Positions 1 to 54,772 are shown, counted from the stretch's first letter. The stretch is 64,000 nucleotides of DNA from an uncultured Candidatus Saccharibacteria bacterium (GCA_964618905.1 CAZUDK010000001.1:92614-156613); one strand, 5' to 3'. Made by a program: numbers and translations. The notes: generated by a model from the sequence alone, not told the origin.

Positions 1-1364
<1,364 letters not shown>

Positions 1365-1377
1365 TTACTTGAAACTA

Positions 1378-1809
1378 CTAGTAAGTAACCTTAACAGCTC
1401 TTTCAACTCGCCGCGGATTGCTTGAATCGCAAGTATTATAACCGAAGGATTGAATCTGCGTGGAATTATCTGCAGATTTCGTAACTACTACTCTTGTGCA
1501 ATATGGGTCTGGCGAGAAGTCGAAAGTGAACTCAGACGGAGAATCACCACCAACTGTAATAGTCTGGTCATTGCAAATAATCTCAGATGAAGTGGAGGTT
1601 GAGAAAGCGCTAAAGCCCGTCGGGTTCGACACATCCCAATACAGAGCACATTCCACGCCTGTGTCTGCTGCATAAAAAGCATTCTGAGATTCCCGAGCGG
1701 CAGAATAAATCTTGGATGACTTAACAGCCAGTCCGATTATGCCGGTGGCGACCAAAAGCAAAGTGCCTGTCGTTACTATTGCTATAAATAATGTGAATCC
1801 TTTATTCAT
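1378..1809 (-). CDS. type IV pilin-like minor pilin/pseudopilin lacking Glu5 (N-term MNKGFTLFIAIV)
   Basis: Class III signal-like N-terminus G|FTLF plus a hydrophobic helix; several Cys in the C-terminal half; last gene of the pilus cluster. Confidence 0.55.
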   Translation of the reverse strand: MNKGFTLFIAIVTTGTLLLVATGIIGLAVKSSKIYSAARESQNAFYAADTGVECALYWDVSNPTGFSAFSTSTSSEIICNDQTITVGGDSPSEFTFDFSPDPYCTRVVVTKSADNSTQIQSFGYNTCDSSNPRRVERAVKVTY

Positions 1810-1815
1810 ATTGTT

Positions 1816-2337
1816 TTATTGCCAATCAAGAATATTCTCTTTAACTTTAAATTCCCTATCTATAATTCCTTTGTGCCAACTGACTGTAACCAGCATCGAT
1901 ATTTCCTTGCTGTCTACACTGGTTAAAGTTACTTCCCTCTTGAAAGGAGTCTCGTCCCATGAGCTGTCATAACCGAAGAATCCTGTCTCTTGATTCTGTC
2001 TGAGAAACGGGCAGTTATCTCCAGAGCAAGTGGTTATAGAATTTTCCAGCGCGTCCACTCTGCAAACTTTGCCAAAGTAACACGGGTCTGAAGAAGAATC
2101 AGATATACCATAGAGCCAATCCCTGCCGTTAAGGCCGTTCTCATCGCGCATATTTCTAATCTGCTCGACCGCTTCTTGAGCCAGATAAAATGCTGTTACT
2201 TCATCTTTTGACAAGATAGATAAAGAGAGACCTTTCTGGGCTGCCGTAGAAGCACCGATAACAGCTGTCACCAATATAGCTATGGCCACCAAAGTTTCTA
2301 CCAGAGTAAAACCTGTTGTATTTTTTTTCTTCTTCAT
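1816..2337 (-). CDS. type IV pilin-like protein (prepilin N-terminus GFTLVETLVAIAIL)
   Basis: Canonical G|FTLVE prepilin peptidase motif and N-terminal hydrophobic helix. Confidence 0.7.
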   Translation of the reverse strand: MKKKKNTTGFTLVETLVAIAILVTAVIGASTAAQKGLSLSILSKDEVTAFYLAQEAVEQIRNMRDENGLNGRDWLYGISDSSSDPCYFGKVCRVDALENSITTCSGDNCPFLRQNQETGFFGYDSSWDETPFKREVTLTSVDSKEISMLVTVSWHKGIIDREFKVKENILDWQ

Positions 2338-2338
2338 A

Positions 2339-2893
2339 TTAATTATCTAATACTCTCTGAGATACAAGAGTCTGGAGAGTAAACTCAGATTGACTGTTTT
2401 CATCCGACCCGGCCTGGCCGCTGACCTTTATGAAAACTTTAGGCTGCAAAGCTGGAGACTGAGAACCGGCTCCGAGCACATAAAAGCTCAAATCTTCGAT
2501 AACCACTTCTCCTCCCGTAACAGCAGCAAAGCTTGTGCCACCATCTGTTGATTTTTCTATCGTATCATCTGAAAGTCTGTAGACTATCTGCTCGTCATCA
2601 CTGGATAGGAAACTGACATAATCATCCCCAGAAGGGCAGTTCTGCGGAGAAGTTATAGTTCCGGAAGATCCGCAGTGATAATTCTCTCCAAAACGCATTT
2701 CGCGCGCCATAGATTCCATAGCTAAATTAACATTAGACATGACTGCTTTAAGGGAACGAGATTTTCTATTCAGATCAAAGATTCCCAAGATAGATCCCAT
2801 ACTTACTGTCATTATCAGCATGAATAAAGACATGGATGTTATCAATTCCACCAGCGTAAAGCCTCCTGTTCCTTTTAATTTTATCTGCTTCAT
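2339..2893 (-). CDS. type IV pilin-like minor pilin (GGFTLVELITSMSLF)
   Basis: G|FTLVE motif after a basic leader. Confidence 0.7.
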   Translation of the reverse strand: MKQIKLKGTGGFTLVELITSMSLFMLIMTVSMGSILGIFDLNRKSRSLKAVMSNVNLAMESMAREMRFGENYHCGSSGTITSPQNCPSGDDYVSFLSSDDEQIVYRLSDDTIEKSTDGGTSFAAVTGGEVVIEDLSFYVLGAGSQSPALQPKVFIKVSGQAGSDENSQSEFTLQTLVSQRVLDN

Positions 2894-3582
2894 TGTACTG
2901 ATATGTATCCAGTCTTATAAACCGACACCGACCTTTCAAGGTCTGACAGAGAAGAAAGCTTTATTTTGGCACCTTTGACATTCGACGGCGAAATTTGGGA
3001 ACCGGAGCTATTAAAGAATTTCAAGTTAGCAGTTGTATTAGGTCTTATGAAAGTAACAGCAAGACGCCCTATATTACAGTCCTCGCTATCATCAGTATGT
3101 ATGACACAAAGAGAGTCTATGGTATTGCCATTCGAAATAGCTGTCTTTTCAAGACATTCTGAGGAATCGTCTACAGGACACGACCAGTCATCTTCATATT
3201 CCCTATCATCATCCAAATCCACAAAGAACACATAAGAATCATCTGCACCTCCGGCGCCACTTAAACGAAATTCTACACCGTATGCCGAATTGAAATCGCT
3301 CGAATCCGGAGCTGTCTGCCTGACACTGACTCCATATATCTGAGCTTGAGATATGGAAAGACTAATGTCCTCAGCAAGATTAGAAAGAGAAGCACCTTCT
3401 GTGTAGGTGTGCTGATTAGAGAGGACGACAGATGAGATGATAGCTACTATCGACAGCGAAATCAGCATTTCAGGAAGAGTAAAACCGCCTCGCCTTAAGC
3501 TAGCCGAGGCGGATCCCTTTGACTCGCTTTGCTCTCTTAGGGTAGTCAACCTTTTTTTGTTTTTAGAAAAAAGTCGATACAT
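2890..3582 (-). CDS. type IV pilin-like protein with an unusually long (~32 aa) leader before G|FTLPEM
   Basis: GFTLPEMLISLSIVAII prepilin motif. The leader coding region contains a GC-rich palindromic element (see repeats). Acidic Cys-containing C-terminal domain. Confidence 0.6.
   Translation of the reverse strand: MYRLFSKNKKRLTTLREQSESKGSASASLRRGGFTLPEMLISLSIVAIISSVVLSNQHTYTEGASLSNLAEDISLSISQAQIYGVSVRQTAPDSSDFNSAYGVEFRLSGAGGADDSYVFFVDLDDDREYEDDWSCPVDDSSECLEKTAISNGNTIDSLCVIHTDDSEDCNIGRLAVTFIRPNTTANLKFFNSSGSQISPSNVKGAKIKLSSLSDLERSVSVYKTGYISVQ
3485..3512. repeat. GC-rich palindromic element copy (CCGCCTCG-N12-CGAGGCGG) inside a pilin leader-peptide coding region
   Basis: Same 8-bp arms as the recG copies; spacer CCTTAAGCTAGC; encodes the ..SASASLRRGG.. 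segment of the 2890..3582 pilin leader. Confidence 0.75.
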
Positions 3583-4348
3583 ATAGAAGGTTTAAATTAA
3601 ATACCAAGCTAAGCCACGCTCCGATTATGAGAAAAGGTCCAAATGGTATCTCGCTCTTCATTGTAAGCTTTTTTCTACCTAGAAGCATCCACACCAATAC
3701 AGTCAAAGTACCGATCCAAAAAGCCAGTACGACCGCAGAGAAAGCTTTTTCGGCCCCAAGAAGAATACCGATAGACAATGCCAACTTAGCATCCCCAAAA
3801 CCCATCGCCCTTCCTCTTGAGATGAGCCAAATAAAAGCAAAGAAAGAAAACAGCACAGGGCCAGCAAGAAGATCAACTAAAGAATAATGAATCAAAAAAG
3901 CCGGCAGACCAAGAGCCAGTATGATGCTCGCATAAACCAATCCGTCTGAAATGATCCGATGCTTTAGATCATATATAAAAATAACTATGTATATTGAAAA
4001 AACTGCTAAATATAAAAGAGTTGAAAGAGCAAAAGCCCAACTAAATTCCCTATAAATTGAAAGCTGGTGATTGAAGACAGATGCAAATACCAATCCGGTC
4101 AGTATCTCTATAGCAGGATACTGCCAAGACAGTCTTGATTTACAAGACCGGCATCTGGCTCCAAGAGCAAAGAAGCTCACAATAGGTACAAGCTCCCACC
4201 ACCTAAGCTGTTTGCTGCACGAGAAGCAATATGACCTTCCAGAGAATATGGACTTAGAACCCCACCTTAGGCCGACTACGTTAACGAAACTGCCAACAAT
4301 GGCGCCTAGGAGAAAAAGAGAGAAAGATGTGATTAAGATGCTGGACAC
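3563..4348 (-). CDS. pilD: prepilin peptidase (A24 family, PilD/PppA)
   Basis: Polytopic membrane protein; N-terminal CxxC...CxxC zinc motif (CFSC, CRSC); catalytic Asp motif GFGDAKL. Confidence 0.85.
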   Translation of the reverse strand: MSSILITSFSLFLLGAIVGSFVNVVGLRWGSKSIFSGRSYCFSCSKQLRWWELVPIVSFFALGARCRSCKSRLSWQYPAIEILTGLVFASVFNHQLSIYREFSWAFALSTLLYLAVFSIYIVIFIYDLKHRIISDGLVYASIILALGLPAFLIHYSLVDLLAGPVLFSFFAFIWLISRGRAMGFGDAKLALSIGILLGAEKAFSAVVLAFWIGTLTVLVWMLLGRKKLTMKSEIPFGPFLIIGAWLSLVFNLNLLYVSTFF

Positions 4349-4851
4349 ACAGTAGCGCCTGCGGCTGGTGCACTAGCAATCTTCCTTGAAGCACCGAGAG
4401 AATCCACACACCAGTATCCACCTACGAAAGGCAGAGCAGCATGGACTTGATAAGCTGTTGCGCTTGATACACAACCGATAGTTCCAACTCCTGCAGGATA
4501 ATTATCCTCATCAAGATACTGGTCTAAGCCGGATGCATCACCTGCGCTAACGCTGCACATGCTTGTGTATGAGTTTGGCGATTGGTTTGAATAGTAAATC
4601 TCTGCGGCACCTCGGAGTGAGGAGAGCTGAGCTTGAACCTTAGCATCGTTACCTTTACCTCTAGCTGAGTTAAGAGAAGCAAGGACAACTGAAGAGAGCA
4701 CACCGATAATAGCTACCACCACCAGAAGTTCTATAAGGGTGAAACCTGCCTGCAGGTGGGTAGAATTTTTTTCTCTGTTTTTTAACATAGTCATATTAAC
4801 TTTAATTGAGTTACCCTTTAAGTATACCTTAAAAGCCCGATGAGTTTGCAA
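4333..4851 (-). CDS. pilA: major type IV pilin (PilA-like)
   Basis: AGFTLIELLVVVAIIGVL canonical pilin N-terminus; C-terminal Cys pair (disulfide loop). The true start is probably an internal Met (MTML... or MLKNRE...), which would shorten the leader. Confidence 0.8.
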   Translation of the reverse strand: MQTHRAFKVYLKGNSIKVNMTMLKNREKNSTHLQAGFTLIELLVVVAIIGVLSSVVLASLNSARGKGNDAKVQAQLSSLRGAAEIYYSNQSPNSYTSMCSVSAGDASGLDQYLDEDNYPAGVGTIGCVSSATAYQVHAALPFVGGYWCVDSLGASRKIASAPAAGATVCPAS

Positions 4852-6037
4852 TGTTGTAAATGGGGATAAGAACAGAAGCTAGGAGGACACCTACACCAAG
4901 TCCCAAAGCCACGATCATCACAGGTTCAATAAGGCTGACCATGGTATCGACAGCATTAACGACTTCCCTTTGGTAGAAATGAGCCATGGTTTTTAAAATT
5001 TTGCCAACTTCTCCGGATTCCTCGCCCACGCGTATCATCTGGACAAGCACGCTTGGCACATCTTCATATTGAGACAAAGATTGTGAAAACGAGCTACCAC
5101 TCTTAACGGCTATAGCACTCTTCTCCAGCATGTCTTTATATACAATATTATCCACCACTGATGCGGTTATCTCTATAGCTCTTGCCATAGGGATACCCGA
5201 CAAAAGCATGGTGTTCATGTTGTCAGCTATCACTGACAAATAAAGCTTTTTGTATAGATCACCGACATAAGGCACTGTAAGTTTGAACCTTGCGAAAGCG
5301 ATCTTGCCTTCATCGGTGCGGATATACCTAATCAGAAGAACAACGGCAACTATGACTGCCGCAAGCAGGATTGCTCCGTAATCTACGAACAAATCGCTTA
5401 TGCTGAAGACAATTTTCGTATAAACAGGTATGGGCGCGTCTGATTCTTTAAGAATGACGCTTATTTTAGGCACAATAAAAGTGAACATCACTATCATCAC
5501 ACCAAAGAAAACCGTTATAACAAACGCAGGATATATAAGGGCATTCTTTGCTTTAGATATAACCTCATAGCTTCTATCCAAGTGATCCGCCAGATAATCA
5601 AAGGTTTCATTTAGTTTGCCCGATTCTTCTCCGGCCTTGACCATGTTTACATAAAATTCAGAGAAGATATCAGGATGCTTTGCCAAAGCCTTGGATATCG
5701 AACTCCCGCCCTGAAGGTCTTCAGTAACCTCCTGGAGGTTCTTGCGCAATACTTCATTCTCGACTTCGCCGGAGAGCAGGCTGAAGACCTTCAGGGCTGG
5801 AACCTCCGCTTCAAAGAGCGTGGCCATCTGCCTTGAGAGCATCACCACATCTTTATTCGACACTCCTGAACCGAATCTAATGCTAGTGAGCCAGGACTCT
5901 TTCTCTTGCGGTTCGATTTCTGAAATGATCAATCCTCTCTTCTGCAGAGCATTTATAGCCACGTCCATCGAAACCGCTTCGATAGAACCTTCCTTTCTGG
6001 CTCCTGAATTCTCTAAAGCTTTGTAGTTAAATAGCAT
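4829..6037 (-). CDS. pilC: type IV pilus inner-membrane platform protein PilC (GspF family)
   Basis: 402 aa, two T2SS_F repeats, three TM segments, conserved position next to pilin and ATPase genes. Confidence 0.85.
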   Translation of the reverse strand: MLFNYKALENSGARKEGSIEAVSMDVAINALQKRGLIISEIEPQEKESWLTSIRFGSGVSNKDVVMLSRQMATLFEAEVPALKVFSLLSGEVENEVLRKNLQEVTEDLQGGSSISKALAKHPDIFSEFYVNMVKAGEESGKLNETFDYLADHLDRSYEVISKAKNALIYPAFVITVFFGVMIVMFTFIVPKISVILKESDAPIPVYTKIVFSISDLFVDYGAILLAAVIVAVVLLIRYIRTDEGKIAFARFKLTVPYVGDLYKKLYLSVIADNMNTMLLSGIPMARAIEITASVVDNIVYKDMLEKSAIAVKSGSSFSQSLSQYEDVPSVLVQMIRVGEESGEVGKILKTMAHFYQREVVNAVDTMVSLIEPVMIVALGLGVGVLLASVLIPIYNIANSSGF

Positions 6038-6064
6038 GATCTTTGTTTATAATTCTCTTCCTTT

Positions 6065-7165
6065 CTACATCATCTTCTCTAAAGTTCGCGGATTGGCTGA
6101 ATACAGCATGGCATTCTCTGCAGTAATTTCCCCTGAACGCACCAAATTCGCCAAGCATCTGTTTAAGTCTATCATGCCCAACTGAGAACTCGTCTCTATA
6201 ACAGAATCTATTTCCTGCGTGCGCCGATCTCTTATGAGGTTTGATATAGCACTGTTATTTATCAGAAGCTCATAAGCCGGTATCAGCCCTCCGGATATCC
6301 TTGGTACAAGCCTTTGCGAGAAAATTCCCAAAAGACTTGAAGAGAGCTGGAGCCGGATTTGGCTTTGCTGATCTGCCGGGAAAGAGTCAATAATGCGGTC
6401 CACTGTTTGGCCGGCAGTGTTGGTGTGAAGTGTAGAGAGGACGAGGTGTCCGGTTTCTGCAGCCGTAACGGAAGCTGATATTGTTTCAGGATCGCGCATC
6501 TCCCCTATCATCAAAACATCGGCATCCTGACGGAACATGCCTCTGAGAGCAGTGTGAAAATCCGGAGTATCAATCTTGACTTCTCTCTGATCGATAATGG
6601 ACTTCTTAGGTTCGAATATATATTCAATCGGATCTTCGATAGTGATGATATGCTCAAGTCTTTCAGTATTAATACTCTCAACCAAAGATGCCAAAGTGGT
6701 AGACTTACCGTGGCCGGCTGGCCCAACCACCAAGAAAAATCCTTGCTGCCGCTTGGCAAAAGTTTCAAGAATCGGAGGCAAGTTAAGCTCTTCGAATGTC
6801 TTTATGCGAGAAGGTACAAGCCTCAGAGCGATATTCATTTTACCGATGGCAAGATAGGCATTGCCGCGGAAGCGGCCCCCGCCCGACCGGACGGTCGTTC
6901 GGGCGGATTTATCCAAATGGCTGTAAGCAAAGTTGACTTCTTTTTCTCCGGCTAGCTCAGCTTTTTTCTCCGGTGTAAGAAAGATTGCCAAGAGAGTATC
7001 CATATCCTGCTTGGTCAGGGCAGGCATTTTTATAATAGGCACTAAAAATCCCGATACTCTTATAACCGGAGGCTTGCCTTCAGAAAGATGGAGATCTGAA
7101 GCACTCTCTTTTATAACTATATCGACGAGCTGGTCTAAAAGATCTGACTTAGGTACTTGTTCCAT
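6065..7165 (-). CDS. pilT: twitching-motility/retraction ATPase PilT
   Basis: 366 aa; Walker A GPAGHGKSTT; Asp box; AISNLIRD PilT signature; no N-terminal GSPII_E_N domain. Confidence 0.85.
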   Translation of the reverse strand: MEQVPKSDLLDQLVDIVIKESASDLHLSEGKPPVIRVSGFLVPIIKMPALTKQDMDTLLAIFLTPEKKAELAGEKEVNFAYSHLDKSARTTVRSGGGRFRGNAYLAIGKMNIALRLVPSRIKTFEELNLPPILETFAKRQQGFFLVVGPAGHGKSTTLASLVESINTERLEHIITIEDPIEYIFEPKKSIIDQREVKIDTPDFHTALRGMFRQDADVLMIGEMRDPETISASVTAAETGHLVLSTLHTNTAGQTVDRIIDSFPADQQSQIRLQLSSSLLGIFSQRLVPRISGGLIPAYELLINNSAISNLIRDRRTQEIDSVIETSSQLGMIDLNRCLANLVRSGEITAENAMLYSANPRTLEKMM

Positions 7166-7172
7166 ATTTCTA

Positions 7173-8885
7173 TTATAAAGTATTTACATCTTCAAACGGA
7201 ATCATTTTGTTGAAAGCTTTTATCAAGGCATCCTCTTTCATAGTCAGCATGCCTTTAGAACGGGCAACTTTATAAAGTTCCTGGTCAGAAGAATTTTCAT
7301 TGAGAATAACTGATTCAATATCCTTATCCATAGGCAAAACTTCCATGACAGCCATTCGGCCTGAAAGTCCGTTCGGACAATCAGGTGTAGGAGATGGCTC
7401 GTACAATTCTTTGCCGATTTTTATCTTGCTTCTGTATTCCTCCGGCAAATCAGAGAATTCTTTGTCTATCATAGCTTTGATAGAACCTTCCACCGGAAAT
7501 GGCTTGCCGCCACCAGGGCAGAGAGTGCGTACCAAGCGTTGTGCTATGGCAAGCTGCAAAGTAGGCGCAATAAGATAAGGGTCCACACCCATGTCTATGA
7601 GTCTGGGGATCACACCTATGGCATTATTGGTGTGAATAGTCGAGAAAACCAAGTGACCAGTAAGAGAAGCTTGAATAGCCAGCTGGGCAGTTTCCTTGTC
7701 ACGAATCTCACCCACCATGATAACATCCGGGTCCTGGCGCAAAGTGGTACGAAGACCTGTAGCGAAAGTGTAATCTATCTCCGGTCTAACTTGGGACTGA
7801 GACACTCCGTCTAAGGTGTATTCAACAGGATCTTCAAGAGACAGAACGTTTCTGTGATCTCGATCCACTTCTCTAAGCATCGAATAAAGAGTAGTGGATT
7901 TTCCTGAACCGGTAGGACCGGAGATCAGGACCAAGCCGTAAGGTCTGCTCAAAGAACCTCTGATCAGTTTAAGATTTCTTTCTGAAAGACCCATCTCATC
8001 GAGCTTTTTAAGTCCCCTCTTCTGGTCAAGAAGTCTCATCACCACTTTCTCGCCGTAATATGTAGGGAATGTCGAAACACGGAAGTCTATCTTGTCGCCA
8101 TTGACTGTGGCAGAGAATCTTCCGTCTTGAGGTTTGCGCTTTTCATCAAGGCGCATGTTGGAGAGAATTTTTATTCTAGCCACAACAGCAGAATGAACCT
8201 TGCTTGGCAAAACCAAAGAAGTATTAAGGACGCCATCCACTCGAAAGCGTACTCTGATATTCTCTCTAGTCGGTTCGATGTGAATGTCTGAAGCATTTCC
8301 CTTGGAAGCATAGCTCAATATCGTAGCTACTATCTTGGTAACGGGCGCATCTTCCACTATCTCGGCTTCTTTTTTTGTTTGTTCTTCCTCTTGTTGATGC
8401 TGGGCAGCTTTTGCAGAAAGCTCAGTATCAAGTTCCGATAGAGCTTTATTGACCTTCCCGGAAAGACCTTTATATCTTTCAAGAGCTGCATTGAAATCGG
8501 TCTCGGTTATCAAGAACAGCTTGTAAGGCATGCCTATTTTGGAAGATATGAAGTTTAATGCGTCCCTCGCTTCTATATCATCAGGATCAACTATGCCGAC
8601 TTCAAGGACTCCATCCTTAACAGCAATAGGCATTATCTTATAGTGCATGGCAGACTCCTCAGGAACATAGTCGAGCACCTTTCCTGGAATTTCCACGTTC
8701 TGAAGACTCATTGTCGGAATATCGAGACCTTCACCTTTGCTCTTTAAAATCTCTTCCGGTGATATGCCTTTGGATATTAGTACTTGTTCTATAGAAAGAC
8801 CGCTGCTTTCGGCTTCAGCTTTAATTTTAGCAACATCATCTGGCTTGATGAGCTTTTTTTCTTGTAAAGTTTCCAGAATGCTCAT
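7173..8885 (-). CDS. pilB: type IV pilus assembly ATPase PilB (GspE family)
   Basis: 570 aa; N-terminal GSPII_E_N-like domain; Walker A GPTGSGKSTT; His box; Cys-containing C-terminal segment. Confidence 0.85.
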   Translation of the reverse strand: MSILETLQEKKLIKPDDVAKIKAEAESSGLSIEQVLISKGISPEEILKSKGEGLDIPTMSLQNVEIPGKVLDYVPEESAMHYKIMPIAVKDGVLEVGIVDPDDIEARDALNFISSKIGMPYKLFLITETDFNAALERYKGLSGKVNKALSELDTELSAKAAQHQQEEEQTKKEAEIVEDAPVTKIVATILSYASKGNASDIHIEPTRENIRVRFRVDGVLNTSLVLPSKVHSAVVARIKILSNMRLDEKRKPQDGRFSATVNGDKIDFRVSTFPTYYGEKVVMRLLDQKRGLKKLDEMGLSERNLKLIRGSLSRPYGLVLISGPTGSGKSTTLYSMLREVDRDHRNVLSLEDPVEYTLDGVSQSQVRPEIDYTFATGLRTTLRQDPDVIMVGEIRDKETAQLAIQASLTGHLVFSTIHTNNAIGVIPRLIDMGVDPYLIAPTLQLAIAQRLVRTLCPGGGKPFPVEGSIKAMIDKEFSDLPEEYRSKIKIGKELYEPSPTPDCPNGLSGRMAVMEVLPMDKDIESVILNENSSDQELYKVARSKGMLTMKEDALIKAFNKMIPFEDVNTL

Positions 8886-8890
8886 AGCTA

Positions 8891-9184
8891 CTAATCTCTA
8901 CCTAAAACATCAAATGGGTTAGACCTGCCTACAGGCTGAGAAGGAATTTCAGTACTAAAATCAGATAAAGACCTGTATATAGGAGAAGCAAACAAACTCT
9001 GGTCGAGCTTTGTTTTCTCAAGCCTATCAAGTAATTCAACAAGATCTTTGCCATTTTCTGTATTCGAATCTTCTATCAGAGCTAAATTAGGTCCGTATGT
9101 GTTGTACAGATAAAAACCTGCAGAAAAGAGCAGAACTATAACTATAATGTTTTTATATTTCTTTAGTCCTTTTAAGTCTTTCAT
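8891..9184 (-). CDS. small single-TM protein within the pilus cluster (function unknown)
   Basis: 97 aa, N-terminal TM helix, lies between pilB and pilO; no recognisable family from sequence alone. Confidence 0.4.
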   Translation of the reverse strand: MKDLKGLKKYKNIIVIVLLFSAGFYLYNTYGPNLALIEDSNTENGKDLVELLDRLEKTKLDQSLFASPIYRSLSDFSTEIPSQPVGRSNPFDVLGRD

Positions 9185-9207
9185 GGTTTTGTTGAGAGTT
9201 AATCCGG

Positions 9208-9747
9208 TTATTTAAGCCAATAGGTCTCTATGTTTATTTCAAATTCATAGATACCGCTCTCTGCCGACTTAAAGCTGATTTCCCTGATGTCAGTTATGCG
9301 CAGATTAGACTCTACATCCTGAATAAACTGCATGAAATCAGAATAAGAAGCGATGACGCTAAATGTTACAAGAACCTTGCCGTACGGAGCTGTGGAAGTA
9401 TCGACCACTGAAGTGTTGTTTTCCTTCTCCTCTGTCGATACAGTGAGCTGATTTACCGACACGCCATATTTAGCTCCTATAGTATCGAGATCCATGGCAA
9501 GCCTCACAGTATCAACATTGTCCGGCAGGAGTTTCTTTACATTTTCTATTTCAGTTTCAGGTATTGTCTGGTACTTCTTCAGAAGCTGATCTCTGGCTTT
9601 CTCCAGTGCAGAGATATCTTCTATAACTTCTTTATTTTTATCCACGCTTTCAGCAAGAACCTTTGTGTTTTGGTATTGCGGATTGATAAAAGTATAAAAG
9701 AGTCCGATGGATACCATTATGAGAAGTATAGCTGTGCTTGTTTTCAT
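9208..9747 (-). CDS. pilO: PilO-like pilus assembly protein
   Basis: N-terminal TM followed by a coiled coil and a periplasmic domain; position after pilN. Confidence 0.6.
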   Translation of the reverse strand: MKTSTAILLIMVSIGLFYTFINPQYQNTKVLAESVDKNKEVIEDISALEKARDQLLKKYQTIPETEIENVKKLLPDNVDTVRLAMDLDTIGAKYGVSVNQLTVSTEEKENNTSVVDTSTAPYGKVLVTFSVIASYSDFMQFIQDVESNLRITDIREISFKSAESGIYEFEINIETYWLK

Positions 9748-9748
9748 A

Positions 9749-10471
9749 TCAGTTTTGTTGAGAGGATACAGATTCTCCTAATGTACCGGAGGTTGTAGAA
9801 GCATTCGGCGACAGCAGAGTGGCAGGAGTCACTGTTGCAGCAGAATTAACATTTGCTCCGGTTTCAACTTCAACCACAGGAAGATCTTCTATACTTTTGC
9901 CGTATGATAGAAGTTCCGGATTGATAAGAGCAGTGAAAAGAAAGTTAACATTGCCTTCTTTATCTAAACGCAAGTCTGAAAATACTGGATTTTGAAAATT
10001 TTTGCTTTCATTCAAAATCTCCGACTGCAGAGCAATGGCAGAATATCCAGTTGCCTGGCCTTGGAGCCTCAGCTCCAAGCCGGCTTCTACGGTTTTGAAA
10101 GTCATATCGGTAAATCTTACATTCTTTACAGTAGACTCTTCGAGGAATTTAAAGAATGGTGATATGACTGAGTGATTAGCCAACAAGGTTTTGGTCGAAT
10201 TGAGCCTGTCGTCCATGCGAGTTATCCTCTCTATAACTTCAGGCTGGATTGAATCGCGGGCATTTTCAATATCCTTTCCTAATTGAGAGATCCTGTATTT
10301 AAGATAGAAGTTATATCCAAATACCCCCAAGCTGCCGGCAATAGTAAGGGCAAAAATTATAGAAGCAATGATGCCAAAAAAACTTTTTTTCTTAGAAAAA
10401 GTTGCCGTCGTCTTGCCGGCAGATGCGGCCGGACCTTTGGGAATGAAAGATGATTGAAACTTTGGTTCCAT
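9749..10471 (-). CDS. pilN: PilN-like pilus assembly protein
   Basis: Basic cytoplasmic N-terminus, single TM, coiled coil; sits between pilM and pilO. Confidence 0.6.
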   Translation of the reverse strand: MEPKFQSSFIPKGPAASAGKTTATFSKKKSFFGIIASIIFALTIAGSLGVFGYNFYLKYRISQLGKDIENARDSIQPEVIERITRMDDRLNSTKTLLANHSVISPFFKFLEESTVKNVRFTDMTFKTVEAGLELRLQGQATGYSAIALQSEILNESKNFQNPVFSDLRLDKEGNVNFLFTALINPELLSYGKSIEDLPVVEVETGANVNSAATVTPATLLSPNASTTSGTLGESVSSQQN

Positions 10472-10555
10472 TCTTTACAAATTATAAAGCAAAAATCGAA
10501 TAACCTGAACAAAATAGTGTTTATAACTTTTCAACCTTAAATAGAAAATGGTTTT

Positions 10556-11773
10556 CTATTCCTCTTCTGCAAGTTTGCGTAGTGCCAAGCCTATAGCCAC
10601 GGCAAATTCCGGACCGGTCTCCTTCAAAACTTTTTCCAAGAAAGCAGGAGTAGCTAGCTTTGAAAATGGATTACCAAGCTCTACGTCGGTTTTGAAATTA
10701 TTTTTAGCAAGTTCTATAAGCCCTTTAAGGTCTGCACCGCCTCCGACAAGCAATACCTTAGAGACAGCCTTGTTGTATCTCTTCTCAAAAGAAAGGAGGG
10801 TTCTGTTCGCTTCTGCGAAAATATAATCAAGAGTCAGAGTAACTACATCTCGAAGACCCTTGTCTTCTCCGGCAGCACCGACTTCACGCTTCATTACTTC
10901 AGCTCGCTCATGGGATATGCCGAGTGATTTGGAAATATTCAAAGTGATATCCTGCGAACCGCGCGTTATTGTATGCGAAGACTTAATAACTCCTCTCTCG
11001 ACAATATAAATTTTAGTAGAAGCAGCACCCATATCCATGATCATTACAGGAGATAGACTCTGGTCTAGTACCGAGCGCATAGTACTGAATATTTCTATCT
11101 CGAAGAAGCCGGCTTCTATGCCAGATTTTGTAACTATCTCCTGATACTTAGTGATGGTATCGCGATGTATTGCCACCACCAGCACATCTATATTCGGAAT
11201 GTTCGGTGCGGCCGGCTTGGCAGCAGGACCTTGTCCTGAAGCTGGTACGATTTTATCTTGCCCCCACTTGTCTCCGCTGATATTCCTATCTTCCGGCTTA
11301 ACTTCATCCTTCGGTATAAGAGACCAGTCGAGCATTACCTCAGAAATAGGCACAGGAATATACTTGCGCGCCTCTATAGGTATCATGGTCGCAAGCTGCT
11401 TGCTGGGAACCTTCGGCATCTCCATCACCGCCATCAGACTCGAAGAAAATGGTATAGAAAGTCCTGCCTTTCGGGTAGTAACATTAACCTCTTTCTCTTT
11501 CATAAGGTCGCTAAGAGCCTGAGCTAGCTTATCTGTCGGCAAAGAGACTGCCTGTCCTATAACAGCTCCTCCATACGGGCCGAGAGAGAGTTCGCCGTAT
11601 GTCTCAAGAACAGCTTGGCCGTTCTTTTTTTTGATCTGAACAACCTTTATTGCCGAAGAACCGATGTCAATTCCAATGACACTAGGTTCATCCTTTTTAA
11701 AAAGATTTAAAAGATCTGAAAAAAATGTCATATTTATAGAAATTATATCATGGAGAAGACAAGTATATTGCAC
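10556..11773 (-). CDS. pilM: PilM (actin-like ATPase-fold pilus assembly protein)
   Basis: VIGIDIGSSAIKVVQI actin-like phosphate-1 motif; ~390 aa. The likely true start is the internal MTFFSD... (~11731), which avoids overlap with the divergent comFC. Confidence 0.8.
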   Translation of the reverse strand: MQYTCLLHDIISINMTFFSDLLNLFKKDEPSVIGIDIGSSAIKVVQIKKKNGQAVLETYGELSLGPYGGAVIGQAVSLPTDKLAQALSDLMKEKEVNVTTRKAGLSIPFSSSLMAVMEMPKVPSKQLATMIPIEARKYIPVPISEVMLDWSLIPKDEVKPEDRNISGDKWGQDKIVPASGQGPAAKPAAPNIPNIDVLVVAIHRDTITKYQEIVTKSGIEAGFFEIEIFSTMRSVLDQSLSPVMIMDMGAASTKIYIVERGVIKSSHTITRGSQDITLNISKSLGISHERAEVMKREVGAAGEDKGLRDVVTLTLDYIFAEANRTLLSFEKRYNKAVSKVLLVGGGADLKGLIELAKNNFKTDVELGNPFSKLATPAFLEKVLKETGPEFAVAIGLALRKLAEEE

Positions 11774-12439
11774 AAAATAACAAACATGCTGATAGGAATC
11801 AGTAATGCTTGTCTTGATTTCCTGTTTCCAAGAAAACCCGAAGTCTTAAACTTGGAATCATTTTCATCCGGAGAGCTTTTATCCATCCTCTCCCCCGCCA
11901 CAGCAGAAGAAGACGAAAGTGTCATAGCGCTCTTCGACTATAAAGATTCACTGGCTCGCGATATGGTATGGGAATTAAAATACGGCGGTAACAGAAAGAT
12001 TGCTGAGAAGCTCGGAGCCGCCATATACGATACCATTTGTGATGAACTCTATGAAAAAGGCTTGCTCAAAGTTGATACTAGACCTGTCATTGTCCCAATA
12101 CCTATTTCAGATAGGCGAAGATTCGAGAGAGGCTGGAATCAAACCGAACTTCTAGCCGAAGCAGTTAAAAAATGTGACGAAGATATGAGATTTAAATATC
12201 TTCCTCGGCAACTTGTTAAGTTTGTGCACACTGAAAGCCAGACCCAAACTTCCGGCCGGGCCGAGCGCGAAGAAAATATAAAAAACTCAATGCGCGTCCT
12301 AAACCCTTCCAAAGTAGAGGGTCGACACATAATTCTTATTGATGATGTATGCACTACAGGCGCAACATTCAAAGAAGCCAAGCGAGCGCTCAAGGAAGCC
12401 GGAGCAGCGCAGATTCTATGTGTGGCAATAACTCACTGA
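11750..12439 (+). CDS. comFC: ComF-family competence protein (ComFC, PRTase-like)
   Basis: C-terminal PRTase signature HIILIDDVCTTGATFKEAKRALKEAGA; central PIP..RRRFERGWNQTELLA motif typical of ComF; N-terminal FLFP zinc-finger region is degenerate. Confidence 0.75.
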   Translation: MEKTSILHKITNMLIGISNACLDFLFPRKPEVLNLESFSSGELLSILSPATAEEDESVIALFDYKDSLARDMVWELKYGGNRKIAEKLGAAIYDTICDELYEKGLLKVDTRPVIVPIPISDRRRFERGWNQTELLAEAVKKCDEDMRFKYLPRQLVKFVHTESQTQTSGRAEREENIKNSMRVLNPSKVEGRHIILIDDVCTTGATFKEAKRALKEAGAAQILCVAITH

Positions 12440-12454
12440 ACAGCAAACCCTTAA

Positions 12455-12859
12455 CTATCTGGTTCTAAGGAGAGTATTAACCATGATAATGTTTTCGATA
12501 TCGAATTCTGCCCAGTCAGAATCATCTACTTCGTCTTCGGGCCTTAGCCTGCCTGTAACAGCAATGGTATCCTCTGCCTTCAAATCAGTATTGGCATCCT
12601 GAATACGGCTAATATCTAAAGCATAATACTTGCCGTCTCGGCTTTTCACTCCGAGTATGCAGCCGCGAGGAGGAGCCTCGCCAGATTTCAAAGGAAGACA
12701 GGTAAACGAACCAGTAATGATGACCGTTCTGTCTATCTCATTATTTAGGACATTTCCCCAGCCCTTATACAAAAGAAAGCCGAATATAAGCACAGCTGCA
12801 ACAGCAGAAATTATGATCGCCCTTCTTTGTTTTACTCCTTCTGGTGAAAAATCATTCAT
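12455..12859 (-). CDS. hypothetical membrane-anchored protein
   Basis: 134 aa ORF, one N-terminal TM segment; no family recognised. Confidence 0.4.
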   Translation of the reverse strand: MNDFSPEGVKQRRAIIISAVAAVLIFGFLLYKGWGNVLNNEIDRTVIITGSFTCLPLKSGEAPPRGCILGVKSRDGKYYALDISRIQDANTDLKAEDTIAVTGRLRPEDEVDDSDWAEFDIENIIMVNTLLRTR

Positions 12860-12927
12860 AAAAACATTATACCAATTTTATAATCTGGAAACACTATCAC
12901 AATTAAAAGAGAAAATGTACCCCAAAT

Positions 12928-13272: not shown

Positions 13273-13355
13273 ATATGTCAGTTTTTAATAGGTTAACTAA
13301 TCAGCTTCTATTATATAGGAAAGATAAGTAAAATATGCTAAATTATCGAAGAATT

Positions 13356-19987: not shown

Positions 19988-19993
19988 CGTGGT

Positions 19994-51556: not shown

Positions 51557-51590
51557 GCGCGGTCCGACGTTTCGGACCGCGCTTTTTATT
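51557..51590 (+). terminator. intrinsic terminator
   Basis: GCGCGGTCCGA-CGTT-TCGGACCGCGC followed by TTTTTATTT. Confidence 0.85.
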
Positions 51591-52449
51591 TCACTTTTAA
51601 TATTTCCCCGTCTGTTTCAAACACTATAGTTCCCTCTTCTGCCGTATTGAGTATTTTTGAACCCAGATTCTTCAGTCTCTTTATAACCTCCGGATGAGGA
51701 TGACCGTACCTATTGTTCTTGCCTGCTGATATTACTGCATATTCCGGAGTAACCGCATCAAGGAAGCTTTGCGAGCTTGAAGTCCGAGAGCCATGATGCC
51801 CGACCTTGAGCACATCCGTATCGAGCTCTCCGGCATTTATGCCAAGAAGTATATTTTCTGTCCGACGCTCGGCATCACCGGTCAAGAGAAAAGACTCGTC
51901 TTTAAAATCTAGCCGAGCTACTATGGAGGCATCATTGCTCTCTAGCCTAGAGACATCCTGATTTGGAAAAAGAATTGTTACCAAAGCTCCGCCGCCAAGA
52001 TCCATAATCATACCCCGCCGAGCTTGCAGGAGTGGTATACCCTTCTCCTCCAAACTTTTCTTTATGGAAGCGCCGGCATTATTCTCAGCTCTCTTGCCGG
52101 AATATACAAAAGCATCCACGTCATACCTGTCCAGCACGAAAGCAAGTCCACCTATATGGTCGGTGTCCGGATGAGTTGCCACCACTGCGTCTATCCTGCT
52201 GTCTCCGAAAGGCAGAGCTTTGCCGAGTTCAGACAGAACTTTGCGGCTGGGCCCGCCATCTATAAGCACTCTGCCGCCGCTCGGCGACTCTATCAGTATC
52301 GCGTCTCCCTGTCCGACATCGAGAAAACTAACTGTCAGATCAGATTGTCTTCCCGCATACACTGCTTGCCAAATAAAAGCATTCAGAATGAGAAGAGCAA
52401 GGATGAGATAAATCTTCCAATGAGACTTGAATGCTTCGACAAATTTCAT
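51586..52449 (-). CDS. stand-alone ComEC-type metallo-beta-lactamase domain protein
   Basis: N-terminal TM anchor; SFLDVGQGDAILIE, HPDTDHIGG, KVGHHGSRTSSS, YGHPHPEV are the ComEC C-terminal MBL-domain signatures. Confidence 0.75.
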   Translation of the reverse strand: MKFVEAFKSHWKIYLILALLILNAFIWQAVYAGRQSDLTVSFLDVGQGDAILIESPSGGRVLIDGGPSRKVLSELGKALPFGDSRIDAVVATHPDTDHIGGLAFVLDRYDVDAFVYSGKRAENNAGASIKKSLEEKGIPLLQARRGMIMDLGGGALVTILFPNQDVSRLESNDASIVARLDFKDESFLLTGDAERRTENILLGINAGELDTDVLKVGHHGSRTSSSQSFLDAVTPEYAVISAGKNNRYGHPHPEVIKRLKNLGSKILNTAEEGTIVFETDGEILKVK

Positions 52450-52548: not shown

Positions 52549-53151
52549 ATGAAAAAATTTGAAGAAAGAACATTTAATATTCCTGAACTTAAAGGCATAT
52601 CAGCCAAGAGTGTAGAAGATCATCTGAAACTGTATTCCGGCTATGTAAAGCACACCAACCTTATACAGACAATGATAGATCAATACAGCGGAGTGGATGC
52701 CGAGGATGGCAAATATTCCTTAGCAGAGATCACGCGACGCTTCTCCTTCGAGTTCGACGGCATGAGAAATCATGAATATTATTTCTCTCATTTTGAAGGC
52801 GGGTCGGCAGAACTTTCGGCAGACAGCCCCCTCATGAAAGCTATTGAGGAAGAGTGGGGCTCTTATGATGCATGGCTTACCAGATTTAAGACTGTTGCTT
52901 CCACACGCGGCGTCGGCTGGGCGATACTCTACTACGATCCGATGACAAAGAGACTCTTGAGCAACTGGAATGACGAGCAGCACCTCGGTCATTTGATTGG
53001 CCTCTCACCTGTTTTGACACTCGACATGTGGGAGCACTCCTTCGTTGCAGACTACGGACCTAGCGGCAAGAAGCAGTACATCGATGCCTTCTTTGACAAT
53101 CTCAATTGGCAGACATGCGAAGAGAATTATGCAGCCGCAGCACGAGAATAA
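52549..53151 (+). CDS. sodA: Fe/Mn-family superoxide dismutase (divergent)
   Basis: C-terminal DMWEHSF (DxWEH) metal-ligand motif; 200 aa; divergent N-terminal His region. Confidence 0.65.
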   Translation: MKKFEERTFNIPELKGISAKSVEDHLKLYSGYVKHTNLIQTMIDQYSGVDAEDGKYSLAEITRRFSFEFDGMRNHEYYFSHFEGGSAELSADSPLMKAIEEEWGSYDAWLTRFKTVASTRGVGWAILYYDPMTKRLLSNWNDEQHLGHLIGLSPVLTLDMWEHSFVADYGPSGKKQYIDAFFDNLNWQTCEENYAAAARE

Positions 53152-54772
53152 TCATCACCGCGTAAGAGATAACTGGCAGCCAGACAGGCAAGGGTGGCAT
53201 TTGTATTGAAGAGAGAGACAAATTACCTAAAACATGAGCCACGCCAAGTATCCAAGAGAGCAAGAGATAGACAGGAAACGCAAGAAGCAAGGAGAAAGAA
53301 GCAGGAAGTAAGAAATTAGATACAGCAGCTAGGAAGCCGGTAAGCATTGTAGCGGGAATAAGCAGAAGAATAAGAATATTTGCCGGCAATGATACTAACG
53401 ATACCTGTCCCATAGAATAAATCAGATAAGGCAGAACTACGATTTGAGTAGCTACGGTAGTAACTATCATCGTGCGCACACCCCACTTATCTTCCGATTG
53501 GCTAAGGATCTGCGGGATAAATGTTAGCCTTTGAAAATATTTTTCAATTAGCGGCACTGCATATATCAAGGCAAGAGTTGCAAGCAAGCTGAGCTGGAAA
53601 GAAGGATCAAAGACTAAAATTTTCGGATTCTCCAAGGTCATAAGAAAAGCAGCAGCAAGAAGCGCTCGCGGAGCAGAGTAGCTTCTGCCAAATAATTTAG
53701 CCGCAATAACAGCCAGGACCATGATGCTGGCGCGGACCACGGTAGCCTGAGCACCCGTCATCAGCACAAAGAAAATGATTCCCAAGATAGAAGCACCTGC
53801 GGCAAGAGATGGGCGCGCCCCCACTCTTCCTAGCAAAAACAAATTTTCGAACAGCTTCCGCATAAACTCCGAGATAATAGCGATGTTGTAGCCTGAGAGA
53901 ACTACTATGTGCACCACTCCAGCACGCCGAAACTCATCCACAATTGCTTTCGGCATAGCATCCTTACCGGCTACGACAAGCCCAGCCAAAAGAGATGCAT
54001 GCGGTTCAGGAAAAATATCTCTGATCTTTCCCACAAAACTTCTTTTAATACTAAGAAGTGCTCGCTTTAGAGGATTGCCGCCTCCACTTGAAAGCACTTT
54101 TGCATCTGCAAAGCTCAAAATAAAATAAATATCATCTTTCGCCAGATATTTGCTGTAATCAAAAGGTCTGCCTACTCCATCATCTATCAATCCAGGCTTC
54201 TCTAGCTCACCTTCAGCGAGAACAGCATCTCCATACGAAACATCCAGCGACAAATCTGCTTTCACTAAAACTTTTTCCATGCCTGCATCAACCACAAACT
54301 GCGTGTAACTGTCTTTGAACTCCGGCTCGGAAATCACCAAGCCTTCTATCTCCGCCTCCTCTCCAACTCTGCTTTGGAGATTCGGATCAATTATATGAAA
54401 ATCTTTTATGTCATAGCGCAAAACACCGAAAGAAAAAGAAGCAGCAGCCAAAACCAAAAGCAATACTTCCCTCCTCGGCAGCTTGCTTGAAACTTTCTCG
54501 GCAAAATAAATTCCAATGGCGATCAAAAAAATTAAAACCGCCGCAAGCGGCGGAATAAATACATATGAAGATACAAGTACAGCGGAAAAGAAAAACCATA
54601 TAAAAACAAAAATAAATTTCTCCCGTGCTAAATATTCATCGACCCTATCAAAGCTGGATCGGGTATTCGTTTCGCGGTCCATTGTATAAATCCGGAACCT
54701 TTCTGTCTGCAAACATTGTAGCGATCTGATCGCAGCGCTCGTTGGCTTCGTGCCCTGAGTGGCCGGCAACAT
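53102..54772 (-). CDS. comEC: ComEC/Rec2 DNA-uptake channel (DUF4131 plus competence domain; no MBL domain)
   Basis: Polytopic membrane protein of ~525 aa with ComEC competence-domain features. Likely start is MDRETN... at ~54682, removing most of the overlap with rnhA. Confidence 0.75.
   Translation of the reverse strand: MLPATQGTKPTSAAIRSLQCLQTERFRIYTMDRETNTRSSFDRVDEYLAREKFIFVFIWFFFSAVLVSSYVFIPPLAAVLIFLIAIGIYFAEKVSSKLPRREVLLLVLAAASFSFGVLRYDIKDFHIIDPNLQSRVGEEAEIEGLVISEPEFKDSYTQFVVDAGMEKVLVKADLSLDVSYGDAVLAEGELEKPGLIDDGVGRPFDYSKYLAKDDIYFILSFADAKVLSSGGGNPLKRALLSIKRSFVGKIRDIFPEPHASLLAGLVVAGKDAMPKAIVDEFRRAGVVHIVVLSGYNIAIISEFMRKLFENLFLLGRVGARPSLAAGASILGIIFFVLMTGAQATVVRASIMVLAVIAAKLFGRSYSAPRALLAAAFLMTLENPKILVFDPSFQLSLLATLALIYAVPLIEKYFQRLTFIPQILSQSEDKWGVRTMIVTTVATQIVVLPYLIYSMGQVSLVSLPANILILLLIPATMLTGFLAAVSNFLLPASFSLLLAFPVYLLLSWILGVAHVLGNLSLSSIQMPPLPVWLPVISYAVMIILVLRLHNSLRMSAN

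Follow-up and report, generated by a model that had tools for sequence, protein, structure and literature searches.

Does a type IV pilus locus that lies next to a ComF-family gene serve the uptake of DNA, the attachment and movement of the cell, or both? This question is raised by a 64,000-nucleotide stretch of DNA (here called the window) from a Zambryskibacteria-like member of the Parcubacteria (Patescibacteria), in which a first-pass annotation had described a compact, secretin-less type IV pilus (T4P) locus with the retraction ATPase PilT, linked to a ComF-family gene and to ligA. That description stands. The function was given there as likely DNA uptake, and here the reading preferred, with a probability of about 0.6, is a multipurpose retractile type IVa pilus (T4aP) of a one-membrane Parcubacteria cell, used mainly for attachment and twitching and secondarily for DNA capture, with comF and pilM started back-to-back and pilM putatively leaderless. 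Family assignments were made by Pfam and NCBIfam profile searches on the translated open reading frames (ORFs) of the window; gene content, family membership, synteny and promoter-like elements were computed, and transcripts were inferred.

Thirteen adjacent ORFs, all on the minus strand, span positions 1378-11773, and every one of them is present where the first-pass annotation had placed it. Their products are PilM, PilN, PilO, a 97-aa membrane protein, PilB, PilT, PilC, a major pilin, PilD and four minor pilins. The cluster encodes a complete type IVa pilus machine: PilT, PilM, PilO, PilB, PilC and PilD were assigned over curated thresholds. The gene order orf134, comF, pilM-N-O-orf97-B-T-C-A-D, four minor pilins and ligA is kept in about 29 related species genomes; a receiver-domain gene found between pilB and pilT in 21 relatives is absent from the window. 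A locus of this kind is already well described and represents the standard T4P cluster of the candidate phyla radiation. It resembles T4P-1 of Nanosynbacter lyticus TM7x (PMC12206443) and T4P1 of Southlakia epibionticum (PMC10633639), in which PilB/T/C/M/N/O/D and several pilins are likewise encoded in one locus. The 'T4P operon' in the core genome of Parcubacteria (PMC4508563, PMC6744442) has the same parts. Further shared features are the lack of PilQ and, as described for the radiation as a whole, a ComEC without a fused nuclease.

The type of the machine was determined from its motors and platform. The extension ATPase PilB (7173..8885) contains a T2SSE domain (2.6e-117) and an N-terminal MshEN domain (1.8e-15); it matches the PilB model TIGR02538 over its full length with 491 bits, under the equivalog cut-off of 676, and reached 498 bits for GspE and 264 bits for ComGA. 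For the platform protein PilC (4829..6037; T2SSF, PF00482, two repeats, 9.6e-56) the scores were 350 bits for GspF, 284 bits for PilC and 135 bits for ComGB. The retraction ATPase PilT (6065..7165) scored 401 bits against TIGR01420 (pilT_fam; cut-off 319) and carries the Walker A motif GPAGHGKST and the motif AISNLIRD. A ComG-type machine was rejected, since the ComGA and ComGB scores are far lower than those for PilB/GspE and PilC/GspF, and PilT as well as PilM/N/O are present. The locus shares with the ComG pseudopilus of Firmicutes a single-membrane envelope and pilins with class III signal peptides alongside ComEC and ComFC, but the latter system has no PilT, no PilM/N/O and a short ATPase, ComGA, whereas the ATPase in the window is a full-length PilB. 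The GspE, GspF and GspG/H/I models score about equal to the PilB, PilC and pilin models, as would be expected of a type II secretion-like pseudopilus exporting proteins instead of a surface pilus; such a function is nevertheless very improbable, given a PilT-family retraction ATPase over its curated cut-off, PilM, PilN and PilO instead of the GspL/GspM pair, the absence of both secretin and GspC, and the microscopy of pili on cells of the phylum (PMC13293708).

The actin-like ATPase PilM (10556..11773; TIGR01175 159.5 bits, cut-off 133; PilM_2 8.8e-40) most likely starts with the ATG at 11731 (MTFFSD...) and not at 11773, because the orthologues align from that Met. PilN (9749..10471) was assigned by homologue annotation and fold; it comprises a transmembrane helix, a coiled coil, a ferredoxin-like domain and a Thr/Ser-rich tail, and its N-terminal peptide MEPKFQSSFIPKGP is invariant. 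PilO (9208..9747) matches PF04350 with 30.5 bits (cut-off 22). The 97-aa membrane protein encoded by orf97 (8891..9184), a gene that nearly all relatives also have between pilO and pilB, has one transmembrane helix and belongs to no family, neither a Pfam nor a PDB match having been found. Its C-terminal motif is DFS..IP.QP.GRxNPF..IG, and L73, G86, R87, N89, P90 and F91 are invariant in the alignment of orthologues. In one relative (locus L012) it is read as a fusion with PilO, and it probably acts as an accessory to the complex of PilN and PilO. The earlier statement that PilP is missing was right at the family level, as no window ORF gave a PilP profile match, but this conserved protein occupies the PilP position, and its GRxNPF motif presumably resembles the N-terminal region of PilP.

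The absence of PilQ was also borne out within the 64-kb window, where all ORFs of >400 aa were assigned to other families and none to the secretin; PilQ is reported to be absent across the radiation (PMC6744442). The single-membrane-type envelope proposed before is in agreement with a Patescibacteria genome and with a sortase gene at 47906-48475. Single-membrane T4aP, as in Streptococcus sanguinis and Clostridium, are secretin-less and consist of PilB/T/C/M/N/O/D and several pilins; the window locus belongs to another lineage, has the conserved 97-aa protein in addition and is linked to comF.

The prepilin peptidase PilD (3563..4348; A24_N_bact 1.8e-27, Peptidase_A24 4.9e-11) carries an N-terminal Cys-rich domain. 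The major pilin candidate PilA (4333..4851) matches N_methyl (4e-8) as well as GspG/GspH and PilA N-terminal models; its start is likely the ATG at 4794, and the mature form has 136 aa, 4 Cys and a pI of 4.8. The class III signal peptide (G-1, F+1, E+5) is present as G/FTLxE (the slash separating G-1 and F+1) in four of the five pilins. The fifth, a PilX/GspK-like minor pilin of 143 aa (1378..1809; weak PilX_N match of 24.5 bits, cut-off 25.5) that is identical to an existing NCBI gene call, has the N-terminus G/FTLFI and lacks Glu at +5, as PilX and GspK do. For the 173-aa minor pilin (1816..2337; G/FTLVE; N_methyl 25.3 bits) weak GspI, ComGE and PilV matches were obtained with NCBIfam, and for the 184-aa minor pilin (2339..2893; G/FTLVE; N_methyl 19 bits), which shares 48-63% identity with its counterparts in relatives, a weak ComGE match. 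The 230-aa minor pilin (2890..3582; G/FTLPE; N_methyl 26.1 bits, TIGR02532 28.7 bits) showed weak GspH and ComGD matches; its leader is long as called and the true start may be further downstream. All five mature pilins are acidic (computed pI 4.2-4.8), and no DNA-binding pilin signature of the recognised kinds was found in any of them.

In the multipurpose reading, the five prepilins would be cleaved by PilD, and the four minor pilins (three with Glu5 and the PilX/GspK-like one without) would prime the major-pilin filament on the PilC platform. The filament would be extended by PilB and retracted by PilT, with PilM, PilN, PilO and the 97-aa GRxNPF protein as membrane alignment complex, and retraction would draw in whatever the pilus tip has bound. 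The pilus would then mainly serve to attach to host cells and to twitch, as it does in cultivated relatives, and secondarily, with some probability, to capture extracellular DNA, which would be passed on to a split ComEC (channel and free-standing nuclease) and a ComF lacking the zinc finger. This reading was chosen because the pilus genes of cultivated Saccharibacteria are essential independently of comEC, which is dispensable (PMC10633639), because the PilT-bearing locus of TM7x was assigned to twitching motility by inference (PMC12206443), and because a secretin-less T4P with PilT, accompanied by ComEC, ComF and DprA, has been described since 2015-2019 as a core feature of the radiation, Parcubacteria included (PMC4508563, PMC6744442).

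The ComF-family gene (11750..12439, plus strand; alternative start at 11786) is divergent from pilM on the minus strand, as had been annotated. Its product has a phosphoribosyltransferase fold, with a core matching PF00156 (3.1e-9) and the PRPP loop DDVxTTGAT. ComF is indeed its best profile match (TIGR00201, 95 bits, 5e-27; GntX 82 bits, next-best family 32 bits), but the match covers only model positions 33-185 and remains under the curated cut-off of 233.55, and the assignment was kept as ComF-like. Model positions 1-32 are left out of the match. The N-terminal 4-Cys zinc finger is absent from the window protein, its place being taken by about 35 residues without Cys; between the FLFP and LFDY motifs there is no Cys, and the aligned ComF orthologues have none there either except L020, with a single one within an insertion. 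Like H. pylori ComFC (PDB 7P0H; PMC9005727), the protein combines a phosphoribosyltransferase-type core and PRPP loop and falls into the ComF family by HMM, but it differs in the missing finger, and its sequence resembles that of 7P0H only marginally (E = 0.2). In H. pylori ComFC, DNA internalisation and membrane association depend on the zinc finger, which is highly conserved (PMC9005727); therefore, the role of the window ComF could differ.

In a comparison of 47 metagenomic ComF loci with enough flanking sequence, comF and pilM were arranged head-to-head in 18, down to 30-40% ComF identity, whereas 27 of the 29 loci without pilM had a classical zinc-finger ComF. The comF and pilM starts are grouped around a shared -10 element at a distance of 16-45 nt from each other, in distant relatives as well. 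As about 29 species genomes keep the linkage, and metagenomic relatives further off do so too, it is not accidental. This bears on the view that the pilus serves attachment and motility only and that the adjacency of comF and ligA is an inherited order in a compact genome, devoid of functional coupling. The experimental roles reported so far in the phylum, host binding and twitching (PMC10633639, PMC13293708, PMC12206443), would fit this view, and so would the case of TM7x, where the linkage of a pilus locus to recA/recX did not predict a role in competence (PMC12206443). However, the pairing of the comF and pilM starts persists at about 30% ComF identity while the rest of the neighbourhood has changed, which is difficult to account for unless the arrangement is under selection, and a purely adhesive or motile pilus is accordingly considered distinctly unlikely.

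The deep conservation of the divergent pairing would equally be expected of a dedicated competence pilus, by which DNA is bound and reeled in for ComEC and ComF, for transformation or nucleotide salvage. In Haemophilus and other Pasteurellaceae, comA-E are homologues of PilM-Q and comF is a homologue of ComFC. The comABCDEF operon (name from PMC9372613) thus groups a ComF homologue with the PilM/N/O of a DNA-uptake pilus, but there all genes point the same way, PilP and the PilQ secretin are encoded as well and the operon is under a competence regulon, whereas in the window comF is divergent and neither PilP/PilQ nor an evident competence regulator is present. Additional points in favour are the position of ligA directly downstream of the cluster, PilT-driven retraction as a mechanism of DNA capture known from Vibrio cholerae (at second hand, as cited in PMC10633639), and the missing nucleotide synthesis of these organisms (PMC6744442). 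On the other side, Southlakia cannot do without its pilus genes but grows without comEC, comF or dprA (PMC10633639), twitching was inferred for the PilT locus of TM7x and the recA-linked locus is dispensable for competence (PMC12206443), ATPase and platform are of the PilB/PilC and not the ComGA/ComGB type, the pilins are acidic and the ComF zinc finger is missing. In the only genetically tractable relatives, comEC alone was demonstrated as required for transformation (PMC10633639), and the sole Patescibacteria pilus tested for DNA uptake, T4P-2 of TM7x, was not needed (PMC12206443). As the TM7x pilus locus adjoining recA/recX is not required for competence (PMC12206443), linkage to DNA-metabolism genes is no predictor of function. 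A dedicated competence pilus is therefore held to be unlikely, and the label 'likely a DNA-uptake pilus' exceeds the evidence, given a PilB/PilT-type T4aP not of the ComG kind, relatives with an essential pilus and dispensable comEC, a TM7x recA/recX-linked pilus not needed for competence and a ComF without zinc finger; a role in DNA uptake is plausible, with the linkage to comF as its one indirect line of evidence.

The DNA-metabolism genes named in the first-pass annotation were confirmed. The 5′ part of ligA (1..1361, minus strand) begins 16 nt past the last pilin gene and continues beyond the window edge; adenylation (DNA_ligase_aden 2.9e-90), OB (DNA_ligase_OB) and Ia (Nlig-Ia) domains identify the NAD-dependent DNA ligase, and wherever the locus of a relative extends far enough, ligA follows downstream of the pilins. 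The channel part of ComEC (53102..54772, minus strand; OB/DUF4131 and Competence, PF03772 2.2e-42; TIGR00361 positions 82-388), an ORF in which the metallo-beta-lactamase nuclease domain is absent, lies downstream of recJ (55149-56789) and rnhA (54648-55139) on the same strand. The equivalent of the C-terminal ComEC domain is a free-standing metallo-beta-lactamase (51586..52449, minus strand; Lactamase_B 1.9e-22; TIGR00361 positions 423-663, 153 bits), 650 bp away, with an opposite-strand superoxide dismutase gene in between. A split ComEC with unfused nuclease is the norm in the radiation (PMC6744442). Neither comEA nor dprA is present in the 64-kb window. The split comEC, recJ and rnhA, together with recG (13699-15906), had been regarded as part of a competence and DNA-salvage toolkit; recJ, rnhA, recG and ligA are housekeeping genes of repair and replication, so their presence is no evidence of such a toolkit, and it would also suit a pilus for attachment only. 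The same holds for the finding that ligA has no conserved promoter of its own (1 of 6); the gene may ride on a constitutive transcript.

Promoter-like elements were compared among relatives. An extended -10 element, TGATATAAT (11742..11750, minus strand), is located 10 nt before the pilM ATG, and its first base pairs with the A of the upstream comF start candidate, the ATG at 11750; in 24 of 26 relatives pilM has a -10 element at 7-10 nt. For pilN, a TATAAT hexamer (10481..10486, minus strand) is located 9 nt before the ATG, with an equivalent -10 element in 26 of 28 relatives, and is taken as the putative promoter of a leaderless pilN-led transcript. The pilT ATG is preceded at 6 nt by a perfect TATAAT hexamer (7172..7177, minus strand) that overlaps the stop codon of pilB; it may be an internal promoter, with weak support because an equivalent occurs in only 7 of 25 relatives. 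No conserved -10 element was found before pilO, orf97, pilB or ligA in the relatives compared. In the window, -10 elements precede 18 of 49 genes, compared with 4% of all ATG triplets; a generic promoter and terminator scan gave no enrichment. The spacing of 6-10 nt before the pilM, pilN and orf134 starts implies leaderless transcripts, as judged from sequence, and expression of comF and pilM would start back-to-back within 16-45 bp of control region. At least two promoters probably serve the cluster, and the idea that it forms a single operon is weakened, since conserved elements precede both pilM and pilN.

The head-to-head comF-pilM arrangement and the downstream ligA are not mentioned for Patescibacteria loci in PMC12206443, PMC10633639, PMC4508563 and PMC6744442, nor do these sources mention the zinc-finger-less ComF and the 97-aa GRxNPF protein. 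What is new is modest and consists of the 16-45 nt comF-pilM pairing, the finger-less ComF, the putative leaderless promoters of pilM and pilN and the invariant GRxNPF of orf97.

A conserved neighbour of comF, orf134 (12455..12859, minus strand), encodes a membrane-anchored 134-aa protein with a predicted extracellular OB-fold. It has its own TGGTATAAT 6 nt before the ATG, and a conserved -10 element was found in 19 of 21 relatives. It is rather improbable that pilus and DNA import form one co-regulated unit, composed of the leaderless pair of pilM and zinc-finger-less comF, the 97-aa protein in place of PilP and orf134 in place of ComEA; in such a unit, the orf134 product would be a surface receptor replacing the often missing ComEA.

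The 13 minus-strand ORFs that make up the type IV pilus cluster (1378-11773) agree with those listed in the first-pass annotation and lie in a window of 42-49% G+C, in which the genes are small and closely packed. Families were assigned with Pfam and NCBIfam, which supported the proposed identities of PilD, PilC, PilB (carrying an MshEN domain), PilT (TIGR01420, 401 bits against a curated cut-off of 319), PilM (TIGR01175, 159 bits against 133) and PilO (30.5 bits against 22). The ORF at 9749-10471 (240 aa) gave no match when its sequence was searched directly against Pfam, NCBIfam and PDB; it was settled as PilN via homologue annotation and fold, with a precomputed PF05137 match in 8 of its 120 best homologues and the source name PilN on two homologues. 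A prepilin N-terminus is present on five cluster proteins. Four of the five pilins read G/FTLxE, while the pilin at 1378-1809 reads G/FTLFI without Glu5 and matches PilX_N, the pattern shown by the PilX/GspK-type protein within a set of minor pilins. The scores of the ATPase and the platform protein are far higher with PilB/GspE and PilC/GspF than with ComGA and ComGB, and the weakness of the latter ruled out a ComG-type competence pseudopilus in favour of a type IVa machine. No secretin was found among the ORFs of more than 400 aa in the window, as expected of the secretin-less pilus that had been proposed. The start of ligA at 1361 is located 16 nt beyond the last pilin gene, and its product shows the domains typical of NAD-dependent ligases (Ia, adenylation and OB).

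A search of species-representative genomes with PilM yielded 31 loci at 52-70% identity, all from metagenome-assembled Parcubacteria, Zambryskibacteria, Paceibacteria or 'Patescibacteria', and a synteny table was built by tblastn. The order orf134 (a 134-aa protein with a predicted OB-fold), divergent comF, pilM-N-O, orf97 (a 97-aa protein), pilB-T-C-A-D, four minor pilins and ligA recurs in essentially all loci of adequate length; therefore the cluster and its linkage to comF and ligA, both named in the first-pass annotation, are a stable feature of the lineage. Several variations were observed on this arrangement. Of the 31 relatives, 21 have a gene for a receiver-domain (CheY-like) protein of 129 aa inserted at the pilB-pilT junction (e.g. 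L004:14525-14914); this gene is missing in the window, where the pilB-pilT gap is 7 nt, and in loci L002, L017, L027 and L029. In locus L014 a diversity-generating retroelement (7340-10331) is inserted between pilM and pilN, comprising a 214-aa target ORF, a bAvd gene, a reverse transcriptase gene (RVT_1, 1.6e-23) and an Asn-rich, template-like copy of the C-terminus of the target ORF. Insertions of 0.7-1.7 kb at the pilM-pilN junction also occur in L003, L017 and L029. Two contigs of one metagenome-assembled genome (RYN_394; loci L005 and L018) each contain a full comF-pil cluster, so that either the loci are paralogous or the bin is mixed.

The top families of the protein encoded divergently to pilM (11750-12439, plus strand) are ComF (TIGR00201, 5e-27) and GntX, well above other phosphoribosyltransferases. 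Its score is under the curated TIGR00201 cut-off and only model positions 33-185 are matched, the unmatched part being the four-Cys zinc finger. The segment from FLFP to LFDY, about 35 residues long, is free of Cys in the window and in the aligned orthologues except that of locus L020, which has one Cys within an insertion of this segment. Membership of the ComF family holds in a broad sense, with a defining feature, the zinc finger, absent. In Helicobacter pylori ComFC, the zinc finger is needed for DNA internalisation and membrane association (PMC9005727). In a comparison with solved structures the matches were to generic phosphoribosyltransferases and to ShosT alone, and H. pylori ComFC was reached at E = 0.2, so that the N-terminus could not be aligned structurally.

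In order to determine how far the pairing of comF with pilM reaches, metagenome contigs were scanned with a ComF profile and 47 loci with sufficient upstream sequence were obtained. A divergent pilM was found at no more than 200 bp from comF in 18 of these, with ComF identities down to 30-40% and PilM identities of 26-68%; the CxxC pairs are lost in most of these ComFs and retained in some. In the other 29 loci pilM is absent nearby, and 27 of them have the classical zinc-finger N-terminus. The pairing is therefore much older than the loss of the zinc finger, and it constitutes the strongest argument for a putative functional tie of ComF to the pilus. A precedent for such a linkage is the competence operon comABCDEF of the Pasteurellaceae, whose homologies to pilus and ComF proteins are established knowledge. 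The operon is named in PMC9372613.

A generic scan of positions 1-13700 for promoters and terminators gave counts not above those of shuffled sequence and was replaced by a targeted search for -10 elements and inspection of intergenic DNA. An extended -10 element, TGATATAAT, extends from 11750 to 11742 on the minus strand, 10 nt 5' of the pilM ATG at 11731, and its first base overlaps that of the upstream candidate for the comF start codon (11750). In the relatives the start codons of comF and pilM are typically 16-45 nt apart, and fifteen loci have TGATATTATA, a sequence that can be read as a -10 hexamer on either strand. When at least five of six hexamer positions and an end 4-12 nt ahead of the start codon were required, a -10 element was found to precede 18 of 49 window genes as compared with 4% of all ATG triplets. 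The tRNA at 15953 likewise has an extended -10 element 11 nt ahead of it. Across the window few Shine-Dalgarno sequences occur, and no clear one was found for any gene of the cluster. The proximity of -10 elements to gene starts together with the lack of clear Shine-Dalgarno sequences suggests that leaderless transcripts are common in this organism and seem to be the rule in its genome. Conservation of the element across relatives is high for pilM (24/26), pilN (26/28) and orf134 (19/21) and is not seen for pilO (1/28), orf97 (2/26), pilB (2/14), pilC (4/24) and ligA (1/6); the perfect TATAAT 6 nt ahead of pilT in the window is poorly conserved (7/25). At least two transcription units may be proposed from this distribution of sequence patterns, pilM alone and a downstream unit led by pilN, which probably extends through ligA.

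The gene for the 97-aa protein (8891-9184, minus strand) is located between pilO and pilB in close and distant relatives alike, the position expected of PilP. The protein contains a single transmembrane helix, and its C-terminal part includes a GRxNPF motif that is invariant. This motif may resemble an 'R-x-P-F' stretch near the N-terminus of PilP, so that a PilP-like role is a lead; a PDB profile search and a Pfam scan of 22 members gave noise only. In L012:4634-5353 a single 240-aa ORF comprises PilO with the 97-aa protein at its C-terminus, minus the helix of the small protein, and is either a real fusion or an assembly frameshift. The C-terminal joining to PilO would put the soluble part of the 97-aa protein on the outer face of the membrane alongside PilO.

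With regard to DNA uptake, comEC (53102-54772) contains only the DUF4131 and Competence domains, and a separate metallo-beta-lactamase ORF of 287 aa (51586-52449) aligns with the ComEC/Rec2 model over positions 423-663. Channel and nuclease domains are thus encoded in separate ORFs, confirming the split comEC noted earlier; the two are 650 bp apart, with a superoxide dismutase gene on the opposite strand between them. A split ComEC is the usual state across the candidate phyla radiation (PMC6744442). The genes recJ, rnhA and comEC directly follow one another in the same orientation (51586-56789 region, minus), the rnhA and comEC ORFs overlapping by 125 nt as called, and recG is located at 13699-15906. 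As recJ, rnhA, recG and ligA are near-universal housekeeping genes, they are by themselves uninformative on competence, and their presence does not count as evidence for the proposed toolkit.

The OB-fold neighbour of comF, orf134 (12455-12859, minus strand), has fold matches that include SSB and PriB, but it was rated weak as a candidate DNA receptor because the OB fold is a generic one, the outer domain is acidic (pI 4.5) and the top match is a NigD-like lipoprotein. A DNA-binding pilin found no support, since all mature pilins are acidic and no FimT-like C-terminal GRxR motif was seen by eye in the pilins.

The locus is a known system, correctly re-discovered by the first-pass annotation, and not a new kind. 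A type IV pilus operon together with ComEC, ComF and DprA was described in the Parcubacteria core genome by Nelson and Stegen (2015; PMC4508563), who proposed attachment as the function of the pilus. Méheust et al. (2019; PMC6744442) reported co-localised PilB, PilT, PilC, PilM, PilN, PilO and PilD with PilQ absent, ComEC without a fused nuclease, and a patchy distribution of ComEA across the radiation. In Southlakia, transformation needs comEC; comEC, comF and dprA are dispensable for growth and most pilus genes are essential (Wang et al. 2023; PMC10633639). Two pili are known in TM7x (Grossman et al. 2025; PMC12206443): T4P-1 is the PilT-containing locus, for which twitching motility was inferred, and T4P-2, which adjoins recA/recX, serves in host binding and is dispensable for competence. 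A 2026 review regards the pilus as a hallmark of the phylum (PMC13293708). The locus is read, with a probability of roughly 60%, as a retractile type IVa pilus that serves several purposes, chiefly attachment and motility, the capture of DNA being a probable secondary one. The secretin-less, PilT-bearing pilus of the first-pass annotation stands, but DNA uptake is demoted from its main function.

The comF-pilM control region, the zinc-finger-less ComF, the GRxNPF protein, the two conserved putative promoters of leaderless transcripts and the OB-fold neighbour do not appear in the cited literature on such pili and are modest additions to it. These ultra-small, biosynthetically poor bacteria are believed to rely on the type IV pilus and the Com proteins for attaching to hosts and for obtaining DNA or nucleotides. 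The comparative details could provide experimental targets on whether the pilus feeds ComEC, namely the control region shared by comF and pilM, the missing zinc finger of ComF, the separate putative promoters of leaderless pilM and pilN transcripts, and the conserved 97-aa component.

Elsewhere in the window are a sortase gene (47906-48475, plus strand) and two genes for likely surface proteins (56851-57822, plus strand; 62922-63983, minus strand); one of these proteins has a lamin-tail domain, the other InlB B-repeat and PKD domains. These genes are consistent with a wall of Gram-positive type and a surface-contact lifestyle. The best NCBIfam model for a beta-CASP metallo-beta-lactamase protein of 456 aa (24296-25666, minus strand) is that of type VII CRISPR-associated Cas14, at 425 bits and well under the cut-off of 800, followed by aCPSF1; the product is probably an RNase J/CPSF-like ribonuclease and not a CRISPR protein. 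Finally, smpB and a full-length tmRNA (86.8 bits) adjoin ftsH at 19544-20735 and are an ordinary trans-translation module.
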